DNA of 64,000 nt from Escherichia phage WG01: sequence record NC_031928.1; one strand, written 5' to 3'. Under the pieces are notes generated by a model. That model saw only the letters and a list, made by a program, of their open reading frames with translations, had not been told where the DNA came from and made no database searches. Below, one piece after another: positions 4,979-64,000 of the stretch. Position numbers and translations under genes: made by a program. Within the stretch, counting starts at the first letter, position 1. Every line of letters begins with the position of its first letter.

Positions 4979-5055
4979 TGGTGACCCAGACCAGATTTGA
5001 ACTGGTAACCTTTCCCTTATGAGGGGACTGCTGCTAACCATTGAGCTACAGGGCC
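4979..5055 (-). tRNA. tRNA with anticodon CAT (Met, or Ile if lysidine-modified)
   Basis: Minus strand: acceptor GGCCCTG with 6 of 7 pairs, T-arm ACCAG-TTCAAAT-CTGGT, anticodon loop CT-CAT-AA, encoded CCA; D-arm irregular. Confidence 0.65.
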
Positions 5056-37654: not shown

Positions 37655-38082
37655 TGTTCCTTATCCCTGATGATTACGAATTAACTCTAGAAAGCGTAGA
37701 GGCCAAAATTCCAGAAGCACAGGGACGTTTTGCTGCTCTTTCTGAAGCGCTCGAGAAAAGCGATATAAATAATCTTGTAGAGAACATGATTGCTGAAGGC
37801 GATATCGAATGTGCTATCGCTCTTGGTTCTTTAAATGAATCAATGGCTCTTAACGAATTTATCGTTAAACACGTTTCCTCTAAAGGTGAGCTTACTCGTA
37901 CTAAAGATATTAAAACCCGTCAACGTAATGCGTTCCAAACGACAGGTTTATCTAAAGCAAAACGCCGTCAGATTGCTCGTAAAGCATCTAAAACCAAACG
38001 TGCTAATCCGTCTACTCAAGTACGTGCCGAACGTAAGCGTAAGAAAGCCCGTTCTAAACGTAAAGCTTTTGGACTTAACTAA
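37654..38082 (+). CDS. 68: prohead core protein gp68
   Basis: 142 aa (T4 141 aa); basic C-terminus. Confidence 0.8.
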
Positions 38083-38717
38083 TGAAACCTGAATTGCTCA
38101 TCGAACATTGGGGACAACCAGGTGAAATTATCGATGGGGTTCCTATGTTGGAATCTCATGATGGAAAAAATTCTGGGCTTGCTCCCGGCCTTTATATAGA
38201 AGGCATTTTCATGCAAGCAGAGGTAGTTAACCGTAATAAACGCCTTTACCCAAAACCTATTTTGGAAAAAGCCGTTGCCGATTATATGGCAGAACAGGTT
38301 GCTACTAAACAAGCTTTAGGAGAATTAAACCACCCACCTCGTGCTAACGTTGACCCTATGCAAGCTGCTATCATTATTGAAGATATGTGGTGGAAAGGTA
38401 ATGATGTTTATGGACGTGCACGTATCATCGAAGGTGACCATGGCCCGGGTGATAAACTAGCTGCAAATATCCGAGCTGGCTGGGTTCCTGGTGTTAGTTC
38501 TCGCGGTCTTGGTTCTTTAACTGAAACCAATAAAGGATATAAGCGTGTAAACGAAGGTTATAAATTAACCGTCGGTGTTGATGCAGTATGGGGACCATCT
38601 GCTCCTGATGCTTATGTAACTCCGAAGCAAATTACAGAATCACAAACGGTAGAAACCGATACCAGTGCCGATGACGCCTTTATGGCTCTCGCAGAGGCCA
38701 TGAAAAAAGCGTTATAA
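38082..38717 (+). CDS. 21: prohead core protease gp21
   Basis: 211 aa (T4 212 aa); position before scaffold gene. Confidence 0.85.
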   Translation: MKPELLIEHWGQPGEIIDGVPMLESHDGKNSGLAPGLYIEGIFMQAEVVNRNKRLYPKPILEKAVADYMAEQVATKQALGELNHPPRANVDPMQAAIIIEDMWWKGNDVYGRARIIEGDHGPGDKLAANIRAGWVPGVSSRGLGSLTETNKGYKRVNEGYKLTVGVDAVWGPSAPDAYVTPKQITESQTVETDTSADDAFMALAEAMKKAL

Positions 38718-39584: not shown

Positions 39585-41144
39585 ATGAAAAAGAATGCAT
39601 TAGTTCAAAAATGGTCCGCTCTGCTGGAAAACGAAGCCCTTCCTGAAATCGTGGGTGCTTCTAAACAAGCTATCATCGCTAAAATTTTCGAAAACCAGGA
39701 ACAAGACATCCTGACTGCTCCGGAATATCGTGATGAAAAAATCTCTGAAGCATTTGGTTCTTTCCTGACCGAAGCTGAAATTGGTGGTGACCACGGTTAT
39801 GATGCTACCAATATCGCAGCTGGCCAGACTTCTGGTGCTGTAACTCAGATTGGGCCGGCAGTAATGGGTATGGTTCGTCGTGCTATTCCTCATCTGATTG
39901 CTTTTGATATTTGTGGTGTTCAGCCTCTGAATAACCCTACCGGCCAGGTATTTGCCCTTCGTGCAGTTTATGGTAAAGACCCTATCGCTGCTGGCGCTAA
40001 AGAAGCTTTCCATCCGATGTATTCTCCGGATGCTATGTTCTCTGGTCAGGGTGCTGCTGAATCTTTCGAAGCACTGGCTGCAAGCAAAGTTCTGGAAGTT
40101 GGTAAAATTTATTCTCACTTCTTCGAAGCTACCGGTGCTGCACACTTCCAGGCTGTTGAAGCCGTAACCGTTGATGCTGCTGCTACTGATGCCGCTAAAC
40201 TGGATGCTGCTGTTACCGCTTTGATTGAAGCTGGTAAGTTGGCTGAATTGGCTGAAGGTATGGCTACTTCTATCGCTGAACTTCAGGAAGGCTTTAACGG
40301 TTCTACCGATAACCCGTGGAACGAAATGGGCTTCCGCATCGACAAACAAGTTATCGAAGCTAAATCCCGTCAGCTGAAAGCAAGCTACTCTATCGAACTG
40401 GCACAGGACCTTCGTGCAGTACACGGTATGGATGCAGATGCTGAACTGTCCGGTATCCTTGCTACCGAAATTATGCTCGAAATCAACCGTGAAGTTATCG
40501 ATTGGATTAACTACTCTGCACAGGTTGGTAAATCTGGTATGACCAACACCGTTGGCGCTAAAGCTGGTGTGTTTGACTTCCAGGACCCGATTGATATCCG
40601 TGGTGCTCGTTGGGCCGGTGAGAGCTTTAAAGCCCTTCTGTTCCAGATTGATAAAGAAGCAGCCGAAATCGCTCGTCAGACCGGTCGTGGTGCTGGTAAC
40701 TTCATCATCGCTTCCCGTAACGTAGTTAACGTACTGGCTGCAGTTGATACTTCTGTAAGTTATGCAGCTCAAGGTCTGGGTCAAGGTTTCAACGTTGACA
40801 CAACCAAAGCAGTATTTGCCGGTGTTCTTGGTGGTAAATATCGCGTTTACATCGACCAGTATGCACGTTCCGATTACTTCACCATCGGTTATAAAGGCGC
40901 TAACGAAATGGACGCAGGTATCTACTACGCTCCGTACGTTGCACTGACCCCGCTGCGTGGTTCCGATCCGAAGAACTTCCAACCGGTAATGGGCTTCAAA
41001 ACTCGTTACGGTATCGGTATCAACCCGTTCGCTGACCCGTCTGCACAGGCTCCTACCAAACGTATTCAGAGCGGTATGCCTGACATCGTTAACAGCCTTG
41101 GTCTGAATGGTTATTTTCGTCGGGTTTATGTCAAAGGAATTTGA
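39585..41144 (+). CDS. 23: major capsid protein gp23
   Basis: 519 aa (T4 521 aa); strong terminator downstream. Confidence 0.9.
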   Translation: MKKNALVQKWSALLENEALPEIVGASKQAIIAKIFENQEQDILTAPEYRDEKISEAFGSFLTEAEIGGDHGYDATNIAAGQTSGAVTQIGPAVMGMVRRAIPHLIAFDICGVQPLNNPTGQVFALRAVYGKDPIAAGAKEAFHPMYSPDAMFSGQGAAESFEALAASKVLEVGKIYSHFFEATGAAHFQAVEAVTVDAAATDAAKLDAAVTALIEAGKLAELAEGMATSIAELQEGFNGSTDNPWNEMGFRIDKQVIEAKSRQLKASYSIELAQDLRAVHGMDADAELSGILATEIMLEINREVIDWINYSAQVGKSGMTNTVGAKAGVFDFQDPIDIRGARWAGESFKALLFQIDKEAAEIARQTGRGAGNFIIASRNVVNVLAAVDTSVSYAAQGLGQGFNVDTTKAVFAGVLGGKYRVYIDQYARSDYFTIGYKGANEMDAGIYYAPYVALTPLRGSDPKNFQPVMGFKTRYGIGINPFADPSAQAPTKRIQSGMPDIVNSLGLNGYFRRVYVKGI

Positions 41145-41576: not shown

Positions 41577-42860
41577 ATGGCAAAGATTAACGAATTACTG
41601 CGCGAGTCAACAACTACTTCCAGCAACTCATTGGGTCGCCCTAATCTTGTTGCTTTGACCCGTGCTACAACCAAATTGATTTACCGTGATATTATCGCCG
41701 AACAACGTACTAGCCAGCCTATTGCTGCACTGTATGGTGTCAAATATCTTACCCCTGATAATGAATTTAGTTTCCAGACAGGTGCCTCTTATGGTGGTGA
41801 AGTTGGTTCTAAAGACCGTGAAACTATCCCAGAACTCACAGATAAGGCCCAGGCGATTGCTCAGGGTGAATATTTCAAGTACCAGAATGTGGTTTATAAG
41901 GCTCTTAAAGCAAGCCCACTCGCGTCCACTAGCGCCCCAGAATTGGCTGATGCTCTTCAAGAAGGTTTAGTGTCATTAACATGTCGTCTGGTTCCTGATG
42001 CTGCCCATACCACTAAATTTGAAGCGAGTGATGTAGAAATCTCTGATGCTGTATTCCAGGTTAATAAATGGAATGCTCCGGTTAAGACCCGTAAATTGAA
42101 GACGGCTTTGACTGTAGAATTAGCGCAGGATATGGAATCAAATGGCTTTGACGCGCCGGCGTTCTTAGAAGACCTCTTGGCTACAGTAATGGCAGATGAA
42201 ATTAATAAAGACGTTCTGCAATCTCTAATAACCGTATCCAAACGTTATAAAGTTACTGGTGTATCTGATAACGGCATCATCGATTTGTCTTATGACAGTG
42301 CTCCTGAATCTGCACGTAAACTTTATGAACTCGTTTGTGAGATGAATTCTGAAATCCAGAAAACTACTTCTTATTCTGGCACGTTTGTTGTGGCTTCAAG
42401 TCGTGTGGCTGCAATGCTTGCAGGTTCTGGCTGGTTAAAACATAAACCCGAAGATAATAATTGGCTTCCGGAAACTGCATACGGATATTTGTTGAATGGT
42501 CTGCCTCTGTTTTGTGACGTTAACAGTCCATTAGATTATGTTACCGTTGGTGTTAAAGAGAATTACGGCGGTAATGAAGTTGTCGGTTCTATTTTCTACG
42601 CTCCCTATACCGAAGGCTTAGATTTAGATGACCAAGAACACGTCGGTGCTTATAAGGTTATTGTTGACCCGGATTCATTACAACCTTCTATTTCTCTGAT
42701 GGTTCGTTATGCACTATCAGCTAACCCGTACACCGTGGCTAAAGACGATAAAGAAGCTCGTGTTATCGATGCAACCAATATGGATTTAATGGCTGGACAG
42801 AGCAATATGTCTTATCTGGTTGGCGTTAAACTTCCGGCAATTATTTACGAGGCTGATTAA
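41577..42860 (+). CDS. 24: capsid vertex protein gp24
   Basis: 427 aa; N-terminus MAKINELLRESTTT is T4 gp24-like; late promoter upstream. Confidence 0.9.
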   Translation: MAKINELLRESTTTSSNSLGRPNLVALTRATTKLIYRDIIAEQRTSQPIAALYGVKYLTPDNEFSFQTGASYGGEVGSKDRETIPELTDKAQAIAQGEYFKYQNVVYKALKASPLASTSAPELADALQEGLVSLTCRLVPDAAHTTKFEASDVEISDAVFQVNKWNAPVKTRKLKTALTVELAQDMESNGFDAPAFLEDLLATVMADEINKDVLQSLITVSKRYKVTGVSDNGIIDLSYDSAPESARKLYELVCEMNSEIQKTTSYSGTFVVASSRVAAMLAGSGWLKHKPEDNNWLPETAYGYLLNGLPLFCDVNSPLDYVTVGVKENYGGNEVVGSIFYAPYTEGLDLDDQEHVGAYKVIVDPDSLQPSISLMVRYALSANPYTVAKDDKEARVIDATNMDLMAGQSNMSYLVGVKLPAIIYEAD

Positions 42861-56963: not shown

Positions 56964-56995
56964 AAAAAAGGAGAGCATATGCTCTCCTTTAGGGG
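56964..56995. terminator. bidirectional terminator between gene 54 and ORF 56997..57287
   Basis: GGAGAGCATATGCTCTCC hairpin flanked by an A-run and a T-run. Confidence 0.65.
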
Positions 56996-56996
56996 T

Positions 56997-57287
56997 TTAT
57001 TTACGGAACGAAATGAAACCTGCTGTGGTCATTAGTGGTTGCTTTTTAACAAACACCGTAACCGAAATAGGAGCTTCGGATTCGAGTTGTCCTGTCACTA
57101 CACCGTTAAAAATGTTTTCGGTTTGTTCTGGATAAGAAAAATTCTCAACAGGTCGGATATCAAACTGTTTGTCTTCACCGAAAACTCGACGTAATTCATT
57201 ACCCACTGCACTGTCAAACTCTTCAGAAGCAGGGATAACGTTTTCAACTACCAGTTCTTGACCATTAAAACGGAATGCAGATTTCAT
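56997..57287 (-). CDS. hypothetical small protein downstream of the alt array
   Basis: 96-aa ORF with GAGGAG RBS; early-promoter cassette upstream. Confidence 0.45.
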   Translation of the reverse strand: MKSAFRFNGQELVVENVIPASEEFDSAVGNELRRVFGEDKQFDIRPVENFSYPEQTENIFNGVVTGQLESEAPISVTVFVKKQPLMTTAGFISFRK

Positions 57288-57315: not shown

Positions 57316-57345
57316 ATAGTACCACATCCTTGTGGTGTTGTAAAC
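57316..57345 (-). promoter_or_regulatory. early-type promoter cassette
   Basis: GTTTAC, 18 nt, TACTAT on minus strand upstream of ORF 56997..57287. Confidence 0.45.
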
Positions 57346-59468
57346 TACATTTTGAATTTATTTGATAAAGAAGAGATATCCAAAGACGCTGCAAGGATTT
57401 CCATAGCCTCGTTGCTTTCAGAAACAGATTCATTAACCAAGAATTGACTGAACCCATCCATCAGGCGAACTTCACCAGTTTCCATCAAATGGTCACCATC
57501 GTAAACAGATTCGCTGAGCTCTGAAGGAGGTGTTACGGTAGCTTCCATAAGGTATTTGTGAGATACTCTATCATTCATGGCAAAAGCCGCTACTTTATCA
57601 ACCTTCAACAATAATCCACGCGGAAGGATAATTTCTGCTTCTTCGGCATATTCTGTAAGGTCACCAGGAGCGATAACTTTAACTGCTTCAGCACCTCGAA
57701 TAACCATACCAATTTCAGCAATTCTATCTGCAGGACCTTCAGGTGCAATTGGATTACCAAACTCGTCTTCTTCCCATTCTACCTCTTCGTCATCGACTTC
57801 ACCTACATCAGATGAACTACCACTAGCCAATTTAAACAACTCATCAGCGGAGGATAAAGAACCTTCACCGCCAACAAAAACGGCTTGGTTGTCGAGGGCC
57901 ATATAATTTTTACCAAATTCACCAAAGATGTTAGGTTTTAGTGAGGCTGACACAAAGTTCTTAAAGTAAAATGTTTTGTTATCGATATTATGGCGCAGAA
58001 TTTTGTATGGCAAATCCTGACCACGATACAAAATAGTACCCTTAGGAAGTTTAATACCCTTAGTAAATGCCGAGTCTAAATCCTTAATCAATTTAATAGC
58101 CGTTGTATTGTTTTCGGATTCAGGTTTACCTAAAAGGAATAAGTTCATAGGAGCATATTCAGCCGCGCAATATTCAATAATAGCATTGCTTTCGTCTTTG
58201 GTTAGGTCCTTAGGTTTAATGAGCTCGCCTGAATAAGCATATGCATCACTAATAGAATCGTTAACCAGTTTATAAACGGCTTCCATAGCGAAAGCAATTC
58301 TAGATGCTTTCTCTGAAGGGGAACCCTTAAAACGGGTACTCAGGTTATTAACAATTTTCTTAATAATATCCAGACTATTGGTTGTATTGATTTGCGAAAG
58401 GCCACTTAAAAGTCTATCGACTTCTGTATTAAAAAATGCCATATTATTAGAGTAAATTTCAAACCCTTGTTTATCTCTATTAGCATAATTTAGTTTAAAT
58501 TTACTATCAGTCATTAAAGCGTGTGTGAGAGCAATAGTGTATCTAAAGTTGGCAAGGTCCTCGCTCTTAGATTTAAACTGAGAAGCCTGACGCATTTTAG
58601 TAATGGCACCTTTTTTAAAGTTCTGACTAATCTGTTCAATACCTTCGTTCTCAGGGCCTTCAGCCGTGTGAACCGGTACAGAAGCTTCAAACTCGTTATA
58701 AACCTGCAATTCTTTAGGGGACAAAGTTTCAGGCTCAGCAGTAGAATACTGCGCCGCCGCTGCCATACGACGCGAAATCTTAGTACGAGTAATGACAGCC
58801 TTATCAGTACGTTTCTCTTCAACTTGTGCAATAGATGCCGCTACGGCTTCGACCTTACTTACAGCCTGGCCGGTTTTCTTAGAAACATACACTTCGCCAA
58901 CTTTAGACTCAACTTTAGTATAAAGATCGGCATTAATTTCAGGCATACCCTTGATATCTTCAATATTAGCACCACGACGTACTAAAAGAACGTAGGTATG
59001 TTTTCCGCTGAATTGGAACATGTCGTCAACAACTTTAAACTTACCACCGGTACGAGCCATAGCCAAGCGAGCTAATACGCGCTGAACGGTAGGACCTTTA
59101 CCTTTCATTTTCTTGGTAGGGAACCGGAAAAGAACTGCATCCATTTTAAGTTTGTTTACTTGTTCGTATACAGTATCAAAAATGGTATTCAGCGTACCAA
59201 GTGGGTCAGAACCTAACCCACCTTTCAACTCGGCTGGGCTACCCTTAGCAGACAAACTCATCAAAATAACATGAACATATTTGTCGCCCGGCTTAACCAT
59301 TTTAATAGCGTCTCCTTGAGACGCATAAGATACCATACGAGCAACCAGATTATCATTACCTGGTGCTTGGATAGAGAAAATCTGTGGAATACCGGAACCC
59401 GGTTTAAGATTTGTTACTGGATAGTTTTTAGCGGAATCACTATCAAAAACCTCATTTAAATTTTCCAT
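57345..59468 (-). CDS. alt: Alt-like ADP-ribosyltransferase, paralog A
   Basis: 707 aa (T4 Alt 682 aa); conserved N-terminal module; C-terminal ART motifs ILYRGQ, FVSASL, EEAEIILPRG. Confidence 0.8.
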   Translation of the reverse strand: MENLNEVFDSDSAKNYPVTNLKPGSGIPQIFSIQAPGNDNLVARMVSYASQGDAIKMVKPGDKYVHVILMSLSAKGSPAELKGGLGSDPLGTLNTIFDTVYEQVNKLKMDAVLFRFPTKKMKGKGPTVQRVLARLAMARTGGKFKVVDDMFQFSGKHTYVLLVRRGANIEDIKGMPEINADLYTKVESKVGEVYVSKKTGQAVSKVEAVAASIAQVEEKRTDKAVITRTKISRRMAAAAQYSTAEPETLSPKELQVYNEFEASVPVHTAEGPENEGIEQISQNFKKGAITKMRQASQFKSKSEDLANFRYTIALTHALMTDSKFKLNYANRDKQGFEIYSNNMAFFNTEVDRLLSGLSQINTTNSLDIIKKIVNNLSTRFKGSPSEKASRIAFAMEAVYKLVNDSISDAYAYSGELIKPKDLTKDESNAIIEYCAAEYAPMNLFLLGKPESENNTTAIKLIKDLDSAFTKGIKLPKGTILYRGQDLPYKILRHNIDNKTFYFKNFVSASLKPNIFGEFGKNYMALDNQAVFVGGEGSLSSADELFKLASGSSSDVGEVDDEEVEWEEDEFGNPIAPEGPADRIAEIGMVIRGAEAVKVIAPGDLTEYAEEAEIILPRGLLLKVDKVAAFAMNDRVSHKYLMEATVTPPSELSESVYDGDHLMETGEVRLMDGFSQFLVNESVSESNEAMEILAASLDISSLSNKFKM

Positions 59469-59471
59469 TAT

Positions 59472-61553
59472 TTACCCTTGGATGAATTTTTCTGGGATGT
59501 CATAGAGGTCTATGCATGAAGCCAAAAGAGGCAGTACATCAAACCGTGTAGATTTAACAAATGAATCAAAAGATAAGGGGCTTTCGGAAGTATCGAAGTC
59601 ATCTTGATATACGACCAACTCGCCGGTTTCCATTAGTACATCACCATCATATACCACAGATTCTTGAAGCTCATCTGTTGTCATAACTTCAGCTTGAATG
59701 AGTTTTGTATTACTAGATGTTGTTCCATCATTATTAGAAGCATCTGTTATTTTATTAACTTTGACCATTAATCCACGCGGTAGAATAACTTCAGCTTCAG
59801 TTGCTATTCCGAGATTTCCTGGATATACGACATTAACTTTATGGGCCCCATCAATAGCCCATCCTATTTGAACTTTAACATAATCAGGATTTTCTTTATA
59901 TGCTCTTATTTCATTAGGATTAATAGTTATTCCTTCTTCATTTTTATCAACTGTCAATTCGTTGCGAACTTCCGGTTCTAAAAGACCAATACCAGCGTGC
60001 GTAACACCAAAACGTCCGAAAATTATAGGAGTTAAAGAAGTAGATACAAAATTTCTAAAATAAAACACTTTATTTTTAACTAGTGCTTCGTATATAGGAG
60101 CAGTCATACTCTGGGCACGATAAACTGTAATGCCTTCCGGTATACGGTCACCATTTTCAAAAGCTGAATCTAAATTATTTACAGCGGATTCGATATCTTT
60201 TTCGCTCATAACCTCATAGTTCTGAGGATTATAACGTCCTAAAAGAAGATTATTTATGTCTGTATATCCTGAACCACAATATTCTCTGATACCACGCTTT
60301 TGTGATGGAGTATATTTAGAACCTTCACGAGCAATAGTAATATCAACCATAATACCACCACCCACACCAGCAAAACTATACACGCGTTTTTTAATGAACT
60401 TAGTCTTGGCTGCTTTCCACTTGGCCTCTGTCAATTCGTTCCAAAGGTCATCAGGTTGGCCTTTACGAGTTCTGTTATGGATAGCCAGCCACTCGCCTTT
60501 ATATTCTTCGAAAATGGTATTAATAGCAGAGGCATATTTTTCTAGAGCTTTAACAGATGTCAAAGGTTCGTTTTTTATTGCTGTAAGAATTTTCTCTTTA
60601 ATTTTCTCTTGGATTTCACCAATACCGTGAAGTGGGAACAATTTATAGTCGTAATGCAATTCTTCAGCAGTGCCTTCAGCTACTATATTAGCAACCTTAT
60701 TTTTAGCCGCAGGAGAATTGTTATTAGTAACCATTTCCTGAGCCTCAGGGATTAATGGAACTGTTGCCGGTTTATTAAAATCCGCTGCAGTAGCTTCATA
60801 TTTCTTAAACAATTCACTTTCATTACGATAAGATTCCAATGATTGGCTTGCTGCAATGGCGCGCCTAGAAATCTTAGTCTTGGTTATAACCATTTTATCA
60901 GTGCGACGTTCTTCAACCTTAGCAATACTACCGGCGATAGCAGTTTCTTTAGTAACCTGCACGCCTTCTTTTTTAGAAATATAAACTTCACCGACATCAG
61001 AATCTACCTTAGTATACAATTCAGCATTAATTCCAGGCATACCTTTGATATCTTCTATATCAGCTTGTTTACGAACTACCAGGATGTAAGTATGTTTACC
61101 GGTAAATTGGTACATAGCCGGAACTACTTTAAAACGTCCACCTGTTTTCTGTGCTACCAAACGTTGGATAATCCGTTGAACGATAGGGCCTTGACCTTTC
61201 ATTTTCTTAGTAGGGAAACGGAACATCACGGCATCCATACGAAGCTTTTTAACCTGTTCGAATACTACGTCGAAAATGGTATTAATAGCATCAATAGGAG
61301 TAGGGCCTAAGCCACCTTTAAGTTCTGCTGGAGTACCTTTAGCTGAAAGGCTCATAAGGATAACGTGGGCATATTTATCACCCATCTTAACCTGTTTAAT
61401 AGCATCGCCTTCAGAAGCATAGGATACCATACGTGCTACTAACTGAGACTCCGCGTCTCCAATCTTCCAAATCTGAGGTACTTTAAGTTTTGGGTTCAAG
61501 TTCACAACAGGCAGTGTACCTTCGGACTCGAACACTTCATTTAATTGGGTCAT
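59472..61553 (-). CDS. Alt-like ADP-ribosyltransferase, paralog B
   Basis: 693 aa; N-terminal 240 aa closely similar to paralog A; ART motifs ITVYRAQ, FVSTSL, EAEVILPRG; central region divergent. Confidence 0.8.
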   Translation of the reverse strand: MTQLNEVFESEGTLPVVNLNPKLKVPQIWKIGDAESQLVARMVSYASEGDAIKQVKMGDKYAHVILMSLSAKGTPAELKGGLGPTPIDAINTIFDVVFEQVKKLRMDAVMFRFPTKKMKGQGPIVQRIIQRLVAQKTGGRFKVVPAMYQFTGKHTYILVVRKQADIEDIKGMPGINAELYTKVDSDVGEVYISKKEGVQVTKETAIAGSIAKVEERRTDKMVITKTKISRRAIAASQSLESYRNESELFKKYEATAADFNKPATVPLIPEAQEMVTNNNSPAAKNKVANIVAEGTAEELHYDYKLFPLHGIGEIQEKIKEKILTAIKNEPLTSVKALEKYASAINTIFEEYKGEWLAIHNRTRKGQPDDLWNELTEAKWKAAKTKFIKKRVYSFAGVGGGIMVDITIAREGSKYTPSQKRGIREYCGSGYTDINNLLLGRYNPQNYEVMSEKDIESAVNNLDSAFENGDRIPEGITVYRAQSMTAPIYEALVKNKVFYFRNFVSTSLTPIIFGRFGVTHAGIGLLEPEVRNELTVDKNEEGITINPNEIRAYKENPDYVKVQIGWAIDGAHKVNVVYPGNLGIATEAEVILPRGLMVKVNKITDASNNDGTTSSNTKLIQAEVMTTDELQESVVYDGDVLMETGELVVYQDDFDTSESPLSFDSFVKSTRFDVLPLLASCIDLYDIPEKFIQG

Positions 61554-61561
61554 AATCTATC

Positions 61562-63457
61562 CTATTTAAATAAATTTGCTAATTTTTCCATAGAATCTTC
61601 ATACATAATTCTATCATAATTTCCAAACGAGAATCCGGTGCTATATGAATTTTCCTCTGTGATTTGCTCGGTAGCTACAACTTCACATTCCACTAAAACA
61701 TATTTACCAATTGAACCCATAGGTCCCTTGGAAGCACCGTATACTTTATTAATCTTAAGCATAACCCCACGAGGAAGAATTACTTCGGTTTCTGTAGACC
61801 AATTAGCCAAGTCACCGGGCACAATAACCTTAATTTTATCAGCACCTTTAATAATTAACCCTAGCTTAATGGTATCTCTAGCACTTCCGGTCGCACTTTT
61901 AATGGTGTCTTCAAGATTACTATCTATATCGCTAGAAAGAGCTTCAGGGTCTAAGTTGGATTGAGCATGACCCATTTCACCGAAAATATTAGGAGCCAAT
62001 GAAGTTGATGCAAAAATAGGAAGATACATCACCTTATGTTTTATAGAATTCAAAGCCATTTCGGTAGGCATTATCTGAGAACGATACACTATGGTTCCTT
62101 TAGGAAGTTTTGTACCATTTTCAAATGTAGAATCCAACTCACCAATCATTTTTATCATTTCATCGGTGGTATCTGTTTTACCTAGCAAAAAGTTGTTTAT
62201 ATGGTTGTAGCCGCCACGAGTATACTTTTTGACTGCCTCTTCTTGAGGTTTGGATAAATTAGGATTATCAGATATCTTAAACAACGGTTGGATAGATTTT
62301 GTATAAACTGCTACTAAGGATTTTATTACTTCCTTGATTTTAGATTCTCTAGCCCAAGTACCTTTAACTGAATCATCTAAAAGGGCCGCAGCGACTAGTC
62401 TAAGAATGTCTACATGAGATTTACCTGATTTTAAAGCCTCTATGACACTATTAGATTTATCTAAAGAATCTGATGCCTCTAAAGCAAACTTTATATCAGC
62501 AATTAGTTTAAGTTTGCGCTCGTCTACTTCAAATGATGGATTAACACCGTTAAAAATATAATCCAAATATTCTGCCATTTCTTTAGAGGCGTCTTTTAAT
62601 ATTTTATTACTGGCTAAAGCTATTTGGCTTTCTTTAGAATCTTCAGAAGAATGAACGGAACTAGTAGCAGAATAATCTGCATAAGCTTTTTTGTGCTCTG
62701 CCGAAAATTTACTCAATCCTGTAGGCTCGGCGGTAGAATATAACGCATTTATAGCGGCCCGTTTAGAAACCTTAGTCTTGGTTATAACCATTTTATCAGA
62801 ACGTGATTTTTCTATTTCGTCTATAGACTTAGCTATAGCTTCTAATTTGGTAACATCTTCGCCTGTTTTCTTTGAAACATACACATCACCGACTTCAGAT
62901 TCGACTTTAGTATACAATTCCGGATTAATATTAGGAATACCGTTTATTGATTCTATATTTTTATTTTTACGATAGATAAAAACATATGAATGTTTGCCTG
63001 TATATTGATACAAGGCATCAAGGACCTTGAATTGCCCACCTGCTCTAGTAGCTATTAATTTGGCTAGAACTCGTTGTACAGCTTTTTCCTGACCTTTCAT
63101 TTTCTTAGTAGGAAAACGGAACATAACGGCATCCATACGGAGCTTTTTAACTTGTTCATAAACCGTATCAAATATAGAACGAATAGCGGAAATGGGGTTA
63201 CTACCTAAACCACCTTTGAGTTCTGCCGGGGCCCCTTTAGATGATAGGCTCATTAAAATAATATGAACGTATTTGTCACCCGGTTTAACTTGGCGGATTG
63301 TATCACCTTCAGAAGTATATGAAACCATGCGTGCAACAAGGTTCTCATTACCTTCAGCCTTTATATTCCAAATCTGTGGTACTTTAAGTTTAGGGTTTAA
63401 ATTGACAGCTGATAAATCTATAGCGCCGTCAAATACCTCATTCAATTGTTCGGACAT
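61562..63457 (-). CDS. Alt-like ADP-ribosyltransferase, paralog C
   Basis: 631 aa; same N-terminal module; ART motifs TIVYRSQ, FASTSL, ETEVILPRG; central region divergent. Confidence 0.8.
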   Translation of the reverse strand: MSEQLNEVFDGAIDLSAVNLNPKLKVPQIWNIKAEGNENLVARMVSYTSEGDTIRQVKPGDKYVHIILMSLSSKGAPAELKGGLGSNPISAIRSIFDTVYEQVKKLRMDAVMFRFPTKKMKGQEKAVQRVLAKLIATRAGGQFKVLDALYQYTGKHSYVFIYRKNKNIESINGIPNINPELYTKVESEVGDVYVSKKTGEDVTKLEAIAKSIDEIEKSRSDKMVITKTKVSKRAAINALYSTAEPTGLSKFSAEHKKAYADYSATSSVHSSEDSKESQIALASNKILKDASKEMAEYLDYIFNGVNPSFEVDERKLKLIADIKFALEASDSLDKSNSVIEALKSGKSHVDILRLVAAALLDDSVKGTWARESKIKEVIKSLVAVYTKSIQPLFKISDNPNLSKPQEEAVKKYTRGGYNHINNFLLGKTDTTDEMIKMIGELDSTFENGTKLPKGTIVYRSQIMPTEMALNSIKHKVMYLPIFASTSLAPNIFGEMGHAQSNLDPEALSSDIDSNLEDTIKSATGSARDTIKLGLIIKGADKIKVIVPGDLANWSTETEVILPRGVMLKINKVYGASKGPMGSIGKYVLVECEVVATEQITEENSYSTGFSFGNYDRIMYEDSMEKLANLFK

Positions 63458-63479: not shown

Positions 63480-63487
63480 TATTTATG
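63480..63487 (-). promoter_or_regulatory. possible late promoter (CATAAATA) for the alt array
   Basis: Near-consensus late motif on minus strand 23 nt upstream of the paralog C start, just after a terminator hairpin. Confidence 0.35.
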
Positions 63488-63509
63488 CCAGAAAAGGCCC
63501 GAAGGCCTT
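63487..63509 (-). terminator. intrinsic terminator upstream of the alt array
   Basis: AAGGCCTTCGGGCCTT hairpin followed by TTTTCTGG on minus strand. Confidence 0.5.
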
Positions 63510-63690
63510 AAAGTGGTAGCAACGTACGGTATACTTCAAATTTAGGACCCTTTTCATAGCGGTCGAAATTATCTTTAAAATCAGCGAATGCGATTTCATT
63601 TTCAAATTCAAGGACAATTTGGGACACTGCAGTGGAGACATCCCCACCTTCTTTATATCCAATAACCACGGTTTCTAAATAAGCTTTCAT
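63508..63690 (-). CDS. hypothetical small protein
   Basis: ORF track 63508..63732; start moved to internal ATG at 63690 to avoid overlap; 60 aa. Confidence 0.35.
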   Translation of the reverse strand: MKAYLETVVIGYKEGGDVSTAVSQIVLEFENEIAFADFKDNFDRYEKGPKFEVYRTLLPL

Positions 63691-63691
63691 A

Positions 63692-64000
63692 TTATAGTCC
63701 AGTTTGAGACCAATCACCAAATACATCTTCAAATGTATCAGCTTCTGTTTTATCGAAACGCCAACCTTTAATGATTGGAAGGAAAATACCTACAGTATCG
63801 GTACGTCCTTTAGAATGAACCCAACCATTACATTCACAGTCAGCAATACGTCCAATCAACTTACCTTCACGAGCTTGTTTCATAAGAAGTTCACGGTCTA
63901 AATCAGGACGGTCTTCCAATGGAATCAATACTTTTTTACCTGATTTATCTTTCTTATGGGTGGTATCTTTAAAGCCTGAACCACAGTCGCTTGTAATTCG
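63692..64000 (-). CDS. partial CDS; C-terminal part of a gene that starts beyond the window end
   Basis: Track ORF 63692..63928 begins at TTG and stays open in frame to position 64000; product unknown. Confidence 0.4.
   Translation of the reverse strand, partial: RITSDCGSGFKDTTHKKDKSGKKVLIPLEDRPDLDRELLMKQAREGKLIGRIADCECNGWVHSKGRTDTVGIFLPIIKGWRFDKTEADTFEDVFGDWSQTGL

Follow-up and report, generated by a model that had tools for sequence, protein, structure and literature searches.

Escherichia phage WG01 (sequence record NC_031928.1) was analysed over a stretch of 64,000 nucleotides (nt), hereafter the window, which carries three consecutive minus-strand genes, A1, A2 and A3, for proteins related to Alt, the ADP-ribosyltransferase (ART) of phage T4. 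An earlier note on this DNA had singled them out as tandem, full-length Alt-like paralogues of 707, 693 and 631 amino acids (aa), and the list of open reading frames (ORFs) gave exact coordinates for all three:

57345..59468, minus strand: A1, 707 aa, 'altb' type, ATG start
59472..61553, minus strand: A2, 693 aa, closest counterpart of T4 Alt, ATG start
61562..63457, minus strand: A3, 631 aa, rare Alt type, ATG start

Full-length family membership was borne out by profile matches. All three proteins scored above the Pfam cut-off of 23.4 bits for PF03496 (ADPrib_exo_Tox), with 63.2 bits for A1, 124.5 for A2 and 51.9 for A3, and matched PHROG 802, 'Alt-like RNA polymerase ADP-ribosyltransferase', end to end from residue 1 with E-values of 1e-207 to 1e-263. 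Precomputed annotations assign PF26846 (Tevenvirinae_ADPRT, residues ~1-240) to a protein identical to A3 and to orthologues of A1 and A2, and both PF26846 and PF03496 to all ~120 homologues. Identity to T4 Alt over the full length is 47% for A2 (over 682 residues), 32% for A1 and 34% for A3. As far as sequence can test it, A1-A3 are Alt-family proteins in every respect.

Alignment with T4 Alt and MX01 gp195 resolved each protein into four parts, namely an N-terminal propeptide, an N domain, an effector part consisting of a helical middle and the ART domain, and an acidic C-terminal propeptide (residues, with minus-strand window positions in brackets):

A1: propeptide 1-6; N domain 7-241 (58746-59450); helical middle 242-420 (58209-58745); ART 421-653 (57510-58208); C-terminal propeptide 654-707
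A2: propeptide 1-6; N domain 7-238 (60840-61535); middle 239-412 (60318-60839); ART 413-631 (59661-60317); C-terminal propeptide 632-693
A3: propeptide 1-7; N domain to ~240 (62738-63436); helical middle 241-399 (62261-62737); ART 400-601 (61655-62260); C-terminal propeptide 602-631

The N domain is an alpha/beta domain of ~230 aa and basic (isoelectric point 9.6-9.7), the middle is all-helical and 160-180 aa long, and the C-terminal propeptides are acidic (isoelectric point 4.1-4.5). An AlphaFold model of A1 aa 1-420 reached a mean confidence score (pLDDT) of 81.9.

The catalytic signature quoted in the earlier note was present in each copy (ILYRGQ, FVSASL and EEAEIILPRG in A1; ITVYRAQ, FVSTSL and EAEVILPRG in A2; TIVYRSQ, FASTSL and ETEVILPRG in A3). 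Its Arg (in YR[GAS]Q), S-x-S and E-x-E residues fall into invariant columns of the alignment of A1-A3 with T4 Alt and MX01 gp195:

A1: R482; S507/S509 (S-A-S); E610/E612
A2: R479; S504/S506; E586/E588
A3: R459; S484/S486; E556/E558

Across the wider family, the first Ser and both Glu were invariant in alignments of 79 and 80 members and the Arg was conserved in at least 90%. By these motifs, the E-x-E of A1-A3 is the signature of an arginine-type ADP-ribosyltransferase, and its second Glu is the counterpart of T4 Alt 'E577', whose mutation to Ala (E577A) abolishes activity (PMC11404850). The published E577 is residue 576 in the NC_000866 translation (E574-M-E576), a numbering offset of one residue. 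The stretch from S-x-S to E-x-E, 72-103 aa long, is essentially unrelated in sequence between the copies, and its spacing is 103 aa in A1 as against 71-82 aa in A2, A3 and T4 Alt. A1 also carries a strongly acidic insert of ~45 residues (…DVGEVDDEEVEWEEDEFGNP…; about aa 534-585, 57573..57700 region) between S-x-S and ARTT/E-x-E, which is absent from A2, A3 and T4 Alt.

Complementarily, we located the sites at which the prohead protease gp21 would be expected to act. In T4, mass spectrometry placed the gp21 cuts of Alt at ITE-6 and LTE-619, leaving a product of 68.2 kDa (Ali et al.; PMC5694885), and the mass that we calculated for T4 Alt residues 7-619 is also 68.2 kDa. The L-N-E-V-F leader, which the earlier note had read as typical of protease-processed proteins, occurs as MENLNEVF in A1, MTQLNEVF in A2 and MSEQLNEVF in A3 and aligns with the mapped ITE-6 site (PMC5694885). 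Both T4 site glutamates are retained in all three copies, giving the following predictions:

A1: LNE6 and LSE653, predicted mature mass 71.1 kDa
A2: LNE6 and LQE631, predicted mature mass 69.5 kDa
A3: LNE7 and ITE601, predicted mature mass 65.3 kDa

The Glu of the C-terminal site ([L/I]-x-E) was invariant in both the 79- and the 80-sequence alignment; that of the N-terminal site was invariant among the 79 sequences and nearly so, with at least 90% conservation, among the 80. The window encodes a likely cutter, a gp21 prohead protease homologue (38082..38717, plus strand; Peptidase_S77, 342.8 bits), and by analogy with T4 we infer that gp21 would cut A1-A3 at both ends.

The three copies are far from uniform along their length. 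Their N-terminal ~240 aa, described as closely similar in the earlier note, are indeed 63-68% identical to one another and 42-46% identical to T4 Alt. The middles (~aa 240-410) are only 10-21% identical, so that the strong central divergence claimed in the note stood, but it is not confined to that region: the ART domains are 36-41% and the tails 18-38% identical, and the stretch between S-x-S and E-x-E differs as described above. Alignment with T4 Alt, the check that the note had proposed, thus found middles far less alike than their flanks and no catalytic residue lost. Among codons for the same amino acid in the N domain, 43-53% differ between the paralogues, compared with 51-59% against T4 alt, and the longest exact DNA match between any two copies is 15-29 nt. 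A1-A3 are therefore old paralogues with nearly saturated silent sites, not recent duplicates. Given this silent divergence, constraint accounts for the high amino-acid identity of the N domains, rather than any recent copying or gene conversion; recent conversion between the N domains was ruled out on the same two counts, the near-saturated silent sites and the short shared stretches.

Selection on the individual modules was assessed from the ratio of nonsynonymous to synonymous substitution rates (dN/dS) against the nearest orthologues, which were SP18 alta for A3, RB51 ORF198 for A1, and T4 and RB51 alt for A2. The ratio did not exceed 0.28 in the N, middle and ART modules, nor 0.24 in the middles, and the sole higher value, 0.40, came from the A3 C-terminal propeptide with only 25 aligned codons. 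Every module is thus under purifying selection, and the low ratio in the middles indicates that these divergent regions are functional sequence and not drifting linkers.

Domain-by-domain comparison with relatives revealed how such a set may have been assembled. In the identity matrix, the N domain tracks phage lineage or slot in the array, whereas the middle and ART track an 'effector type' that crosses genera. The clearest case is A2, which compared with the Alt of the Tequatrovirus RB51 is 47% identical in the N domain, 66% in the middle, 95% in the ART (~92% at the nucleotide level, synonymous divergence dS 0.42) and 51% in the tail. Identity rises near aa 400 and collapses near aa 630, at the C-terminal cleavage site. 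This pattern points to a recent cassette exchange between genera, involving the A2 ART (59661..60317, minus strand) and RB51 alt (L009:1142-3235), with breakpoints at domain borders. Similarly mosaic copies were found in other phages: a 684-aa copy of Bp7 joins an A1-like N domain (92%) to a T4-type middle and ART (59% and 79%), a VR5 copy combines an A2-like N domain (93%) with a T4-type ART (80%), and a 695-aa copy of KIT01 has an A2-like N domain (95%) and tail (89%) around an RB69-type middle and ART (67% and 62%). One metagenomic protein couples a T4-like N domain (66%) to an A1-type effector. When 80 family members were clustered, a single N-domain cluster (at least 80% identity) was paired with four ART clusters. 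Judged from these alignments, the middle and ART behave as exchangeable effector cassettes among T-even phages. The 5' leaders fit insertion by recombination within a shared leader: the promoter-first gene of two-copy phages starts with MTEQLNEV, whereas here A3 starts with MSEQLNEV and A2 with MTQLNEV, and the same upstream unit precedes A3.

These data bear directly on a simpler account of the locus. Adjacent, co-oriented genes of one architecture with well-conserved N domains could have arisen by a simple, fairly recent tandem duplication whose benefit is dosage or redundancy, that is, more Alt per head acting on the same targets. However, the silent sites of the N domains are about as diverged between the paralogues as they are against T4, the middles and ART domains are far apart, and each copy is closer to genes of other genera than to its neighbours, as seen for the A2 ART and RB51, for the A1 effector and the second alt of RB51 (46-67% identical by module) and for A3 and SP18 alta (63%). 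We therefore give a recent duplication almost no credence. The copies have not diverged in place after duplication, but are old lineages joined by module recombination.

A census placed the array among its relatives. The 6.1-kb region is 98.3% identical to Salmonella phage vB_SalD_ABTNLS3, in whose record all three genes are already annotated as 'Alt-like RNA polymerase ADP-ribosyltransferase', and the same trio occurs in the Escherichia and Shigella phages LQ5, PSD9, E33 and PSD2002, where DNA identity is 96-98%. In phage 04086 the trio is present too, with a DNA match covering 75% of the region. In this phage, near-identical in other respects, the A1 copy (Escherichia phage 04086, L010:1509-4075) is annotated ~100 codons short (608 aa), with a 740-nt unannotated gap between it and A2, which could be an insertion, a disruption or an assembly problem. 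ABTNLS3 and 04086 belong to the genus Dhakavirus according to their records, as does the JS98/JS10/IME08/MX01 group, which is closest to the alt genes of the window; the IME08 orthologues are altb for A1 (97%) and alta for A2 (97%; 'alta' in IME08/JS10).

The effector types are distributed unevenly. The A1-type effector is at least 95% identical in 42 records, all those listed being of the JS98/IME08/MX01 group and Dhakavirus wherever taxonomy was read; beyond these, identity drops to 50%, reached by the second, intact alt that RB51, RB68 and AR1 have where T4 has alt.-1/alt.-2. A4, the fourth type (MX01 gp195, 681 aa), recurs at 95% identity or more in 12 records, and the alt of the Gapriverviruses SP18, VR7 and VR25 matches it at 80%. 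The A3-type effector, in turn, was found at 99% identity or above in six records only, with nothing between 60% and 99%. SP18 alta (624 aa, 63% identical; N domain 71%, middle 48%, ART 71%), the sole further relative of A3, occupies the same promoter-proximal slot. Dhakavirus arrays accordingly come as [A1,A2], [A1,A4,A2] or [A1,A2,A3]. In the MX01-type three-copy arrays (MX01, QL01, AnYang), A4 is inserted between A1 and A2, whereas the window instead has A3 upstream of A2; JS98, JS10, IME08 and SP18 are annotated with two copies, alta and altb, as against three here.

The earlier note had contrasted the three copies with a single full-length alt in T4. T4 does have one full-length gene (682 aa, UniProt P12726), but the implied rarity is weaker than it seems: the T4 record also lists alt.-1/alt.-2, annotated there as a broken copy left by an old duplication of the alt 5' part, RB51 has two full genes (697 and 685 aa), Dhakaviruses have two or three, and the trio itself is annotated in six public genomes. 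The N domain was found in 1,200 of 50,697 phage records, at 1,819 places, and the Tequatroviruses among the entries sampled usually have two such places, which are alt and the alt.-1/alt.-2 remnant in T4 and the two full genes in RB51. Tandem alt paralogues were already reported in a 2006 paper, among them a full-length duplicate in Aeromonas phage 44RR (PMC1524935). A 2026 paper reports two paralogous Alt-like proteins, 43% identical, in the T4-like phage 6phi13 and its relative SHFML-11, interprets their moderate identity and makes a similar suggestion of different targets (PMC13600099). Apart from these passing notes, our literature search found no study dedicated to alt arrays. The array is thus already known at the level of annotation and largely ordinary.

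The variable composition of the arrays invites another explanation, namely that the locus is a bet-hedging set in which the copies all work and are aimed mainly at the same key host proteins, for example RNA polymerase alpha, different versions being kept as hosts vary, for instance in target residues, in ADP-ribosyl hydrolases or in defence systems able to sense or block a particular Alt type. Swapping of effector cassettes between phages of different genera and hosts is in line with this, as are arrays that differ among otherwise near-identical Dhakaviruses, a pattern typical of conflict genes; T4 Alt counters the toxin MazF (PMC8120803). Yet no host factor is known to discriminate between Alt types, and the ARTT-loop region before E-x-E, together with the insert between S-x-S and E-x-E, is completely different between the copies. 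In C3-like enzymes, differences in the ARTT-loop region point to different substrate recognition, and by extension the same may hold for the Alt copies. On balance, we regard a set with shared targets as rather unlikely.

We then considered how the genes would be expressed. The following elements border the array:

56967..56990, minus strand: strong hairpin terminator (10-bp stem, then a T run), separating alt.-3 from the converging gp54 gene
56997..57287, minus strand: alt.-3 homologue, 96 aa, DUF5498 (PF17602, 116.7 bits), positioned as T4 alt.-3
63480..63487, minus strand: late-promoter-like box CATAAATA, lying 22 nt upstream of the A3 start codon, one mismatch to TATAAATA, the late promoter box of T4
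63496..63507, minus strand: hairpin GGCCTTCGGGCC followed by TTTT, immediately 3' of the alt.1 homologue stop codon, the same element as upstream of T4 alt
63508..63732, minus strand: alt.1 homologue, 74 aa, Phage_blade (PF24647, 101.4 bits), the ligase-side border of the locus

The hairpin GGCCTTCGGGCC is identical in T4, IME08 and MX01, and a conserved terminator upstream of alt was listed by Nolan in 2006 (PMC1524935). At the place corresponding to CATAAATA, T4 carries TATAAATA, while IME08 and MX01 have exactly the version of the window; a ribosome-binding site, AAGAGGAA, stands between the box and the A3 start codon. The box may thus serve as a late promoter. The intergenic gaps are 8 nt between A3 and A2 and 3 nt between A2 and A1, and the array showed no sign of internal promoters, with 12 sigma-70-like sites compared with 21 in shuffled sequence. 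Downstream, the alt.-3 homologue is the final gene of the minus-strand alt unit, and the hairpin behind it is the probable end of transcription. Because of the hairpin and box upstream, the short gaps, the terminator after alt.-3 and the scarcity of internal sigma-70-like sites, the simplest reading is that A3, A2, A1 and alt.-3 would form a single late transcription unit.

The surroundings match those of alt in T4. The genes for gp29, gp48 and gp54 lie on the plus strand, followed on the minus strand by alt.-3, the alt genes, alt.1 and DNA ligase, and comparison of window ORFs and Pfam matches with the records of T4, IME08, MX01, SP18 and RB51 placed the array between gene 54/alt.-3 and alt.1/gene 30. 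The ligase itself falls beyond the window end and is present in the 98% identical record (ABTNLS3). C-terminal extensions of T4 Alt.-3 allow escape from the CmdTAC defence system (PMC11618068). Elsewhere, the window holds a second case of tandem head-protein paralogues, two gp24-like vertex/capsid genes that are 55% identical, both matching Pfam Gp23 and adjoining the major capsid gene, as well as two adjacent tRNA genes:

39585..41144: major capsid gene
41577..42860, plus strand: gp24-like paralogue, 427 aa
42860..44140, plus strand: gp24-like paralogue, 426 aa
4899..4973, minus strand: tRNA-Arg(TCT)
4979..5055, minus strand: tRNA-Met(CAT)

T4 Alt provides the best-studied frame for interpreting the array. 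About 40 copies are present per head and are ejected with the DNA (PMC9026906); Alt acts both as a head-core protein and as an enzyme (PMC11404850) and modifies at least 27 host proteins, including RNA polymerase alpha at R265, EF-Tu and MazF at R84 (PMC8120803). The locus, the upstream hairpin, the four-part architecture, the R / S-x-S / E-x-E residues and, by alignment, both gp21 sites are shared with A1-A3. In contrast to the single gene and broken remnant of T4, the window has three full-length genes; the effectors of A1 and A3 reach only 11-14% identity to T4 Alt in the middle and 38-42% in the ART, and the C-terminal propeptide is 63 aa long in T4 but 30 aa in A3.

Taken together, we consider it probable that the Dhakavirus alt locus has expanded to three Alt-family genes in one late unit, whose products would be packaged, trimmed by gp21 and injected, with three effector cassettes hitting different target sets. 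By analogy with T4 Alt, A1-A3 would be built into the prohead core late in infection, where gp21 would trim them at both ends. The trimmed proteins would remain in the head once it is filled, pass into the next cell together with the DNA and move ADP-ribose from NAD+ onto arginines of host proteins. Drawn from a pool circulating among T-even phages, the three cassettes would then reach different, possibly overlapping, sets of host targets at the first moment of infection. Different target sets are most likely because the three copies carry different effector cassettes, and a division of targets is plausible since T4 Alt modifies so many host proteins; that A1-A3 hit different host targets is accordingly put forward as a plausible suggestion from their sequences.

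Several points weigh against this interpretation. Expression, packaging, cleavage and activity of A1-A3 are only inferred from T4, and sequence divergence alone is no proof of different substrates, the more so as T4 Alt by itself is already promiscuous. The first base of the promoter box CATAAATA deviates from the T4 consensus, and no exact TATAAATA was found on the minus strand in the region of the array. In the proteins, A1 has S-A-S, unlike the S-T-S of more than 90% of the family, A3 has L-P-I-F-A beside the motif in place of the nearly invariant F-R-N-F-V, and the C-terminal propeptide of A3 is largely missing, with neither the LMETGE nor the ASCID...KF motif that A1, A2, T4 Alt and MX01 gp195 share. 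Because of these unusual residues beside the motif and the short propeptide, the packaging or regulation of A3 could differ.

The same peculiarities could be taken to mean that one or two copies, A3 or A1 being the likeliest, have ceased to function as enzymes and are kept as structural head-core proteins or are decaying genes. T4 alt.-1/alt.-2 demonstrates that a second copy can decay, A1 of phage 04086 is annotated short behind its unannotated gap, and a head-core role has been described for Alt beside its enzymatic one (PMC11404850). In the window, however, all three reading frames are intact, the Arg, both Ser and both Glu are conserved, and A1 and A3 evolve under the low dN/dS values reported above in the N domain, middle and ART, including the somewhat higher one in the short A3 propeptide. 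The A3 structure model is, moreover, confident throughout the ART core. We therefore judge loss of enzymatic function in A1 or A3 to be distinctly improbable and retain the array of three working, differently targeted enzymes as the preferred interpretation.

The array was also compared with other systems. ModA and ModB of T4 fall into the same R-S-E clade, that of arginine-specific phage ARTs with host proteins of transcription and translation as targets (PMC8120803), but are about 200 aa long, are encoded by early genes, are not packaged and are without the N domain, helical middle and propeptides; no tblastn match to either was found in the window. C3-like exoenzymes and the enzymatic components of binary toxins (C3bot, VIP2, iota/CPILE-a, CdtA, Certhrax and Vis) are only 16-20% identical in sequence to Alt, which, unlike them, is delivered by a phage head and not by secretion or a pore and has a long insert between S-x-S and E-x-E. 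When the PDB was searched by sequence, a solved Alt structure was not found, the only matches being weak ones to CPILE-a and CdtA over about 70 residues. A parallel in organization is offered by polymorphic toxins and head-delivered effectors, such as T4 internal proteins with a capsid-targeting sequence, MuF-fused ARTs and polyvalent proteins, which likewise have conserved delivery termini flanking a variable, horizontally exchanged payload (PMC9503650, PMC9026906) and, as here, genes in tandem at one locus. The N domain of A1-A3, in turn, is neither MuF nor the 10-residue capsid-targeting sequence of T4 internal proteins. A polymorphic toxin system proper was rejected: constant and variable modules are present, but immunity genes are absent, the 3- and 8-nt gaps leaving no space for one, and the resemblance is one of evolutionary mode only.

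Finally, we asked how far the N domain extends beyond Alt. An exhaustive search of 1.84 billion representative proteins returned only 71 clusters, with the domain always N-terminal, and nearly all outliers, where they could be examined, had an ART or ART-like remnant downstream. A word-indexed protein search with the N domain alone gave three fragments only, and a Pfam scan of four N domains at E ≤ 10, with a library that does not contain PF26846, gave nothing relevant. One metagenome scaffold from ENA (L006:1-4817) carries a syntenic alt locus with DNA ligase, an N+ART gene (582 aa) and a 541-aa gene with an Alt N domain, whose C-terminal 380 aa had no match to ART or any other family. Foldseek against BFVD returned N-domain-size matches (~180 columns, 11-19% identity, probability 1.0) within large proteins, all uncharacterised, from Dickeya phage RC-2014, Vibrio phages Kuja and VP-1, Erwinia phage phiEa2809 and Agrobacterium phage Atu_ph07. 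Judging by these structural models, the N-domain fold may be wider than the Alt family, and the 541-aa gene and the Foldseek matches hint that the domain may be a general loading module that also carries non-ART cargo. Only tentatively, we suggest a broader version of the preferred interpretation, in which the alt locus would be a polymorphic, head-delivered effector array: a basic N domain of possibly GNAT-like fold and the two gp21-cleaved propeptides would form a lineage-specific head-core loading module for middle and ART cassettes swapped between T-even genera, with three different target sets that include anti-phage defence proteins.

As a finding from a genome scan, the array adds little: public records already label the genes Alt-like, and tandem alt paralogues have been in the literature since 2006. 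What our analysis adds is a map of the modules, the conservation of both cleavage sites and clear evidence for movement of ART cassettes between T-even genera. The module boundaries at about aa 240, about aa 400 and the C-terminal cleavage site would give ready-made junctions at which head-delivered payloads could be engineered. In T4 infection, no phage enzyme acts earlier than Alt, which also disarms the host toxin MazF; if the three cassettes indeed differ in their targets, the Dhakavirus array would offer a natural system for learning how far head-preloaded cargo decides host takeover and counter-defence.

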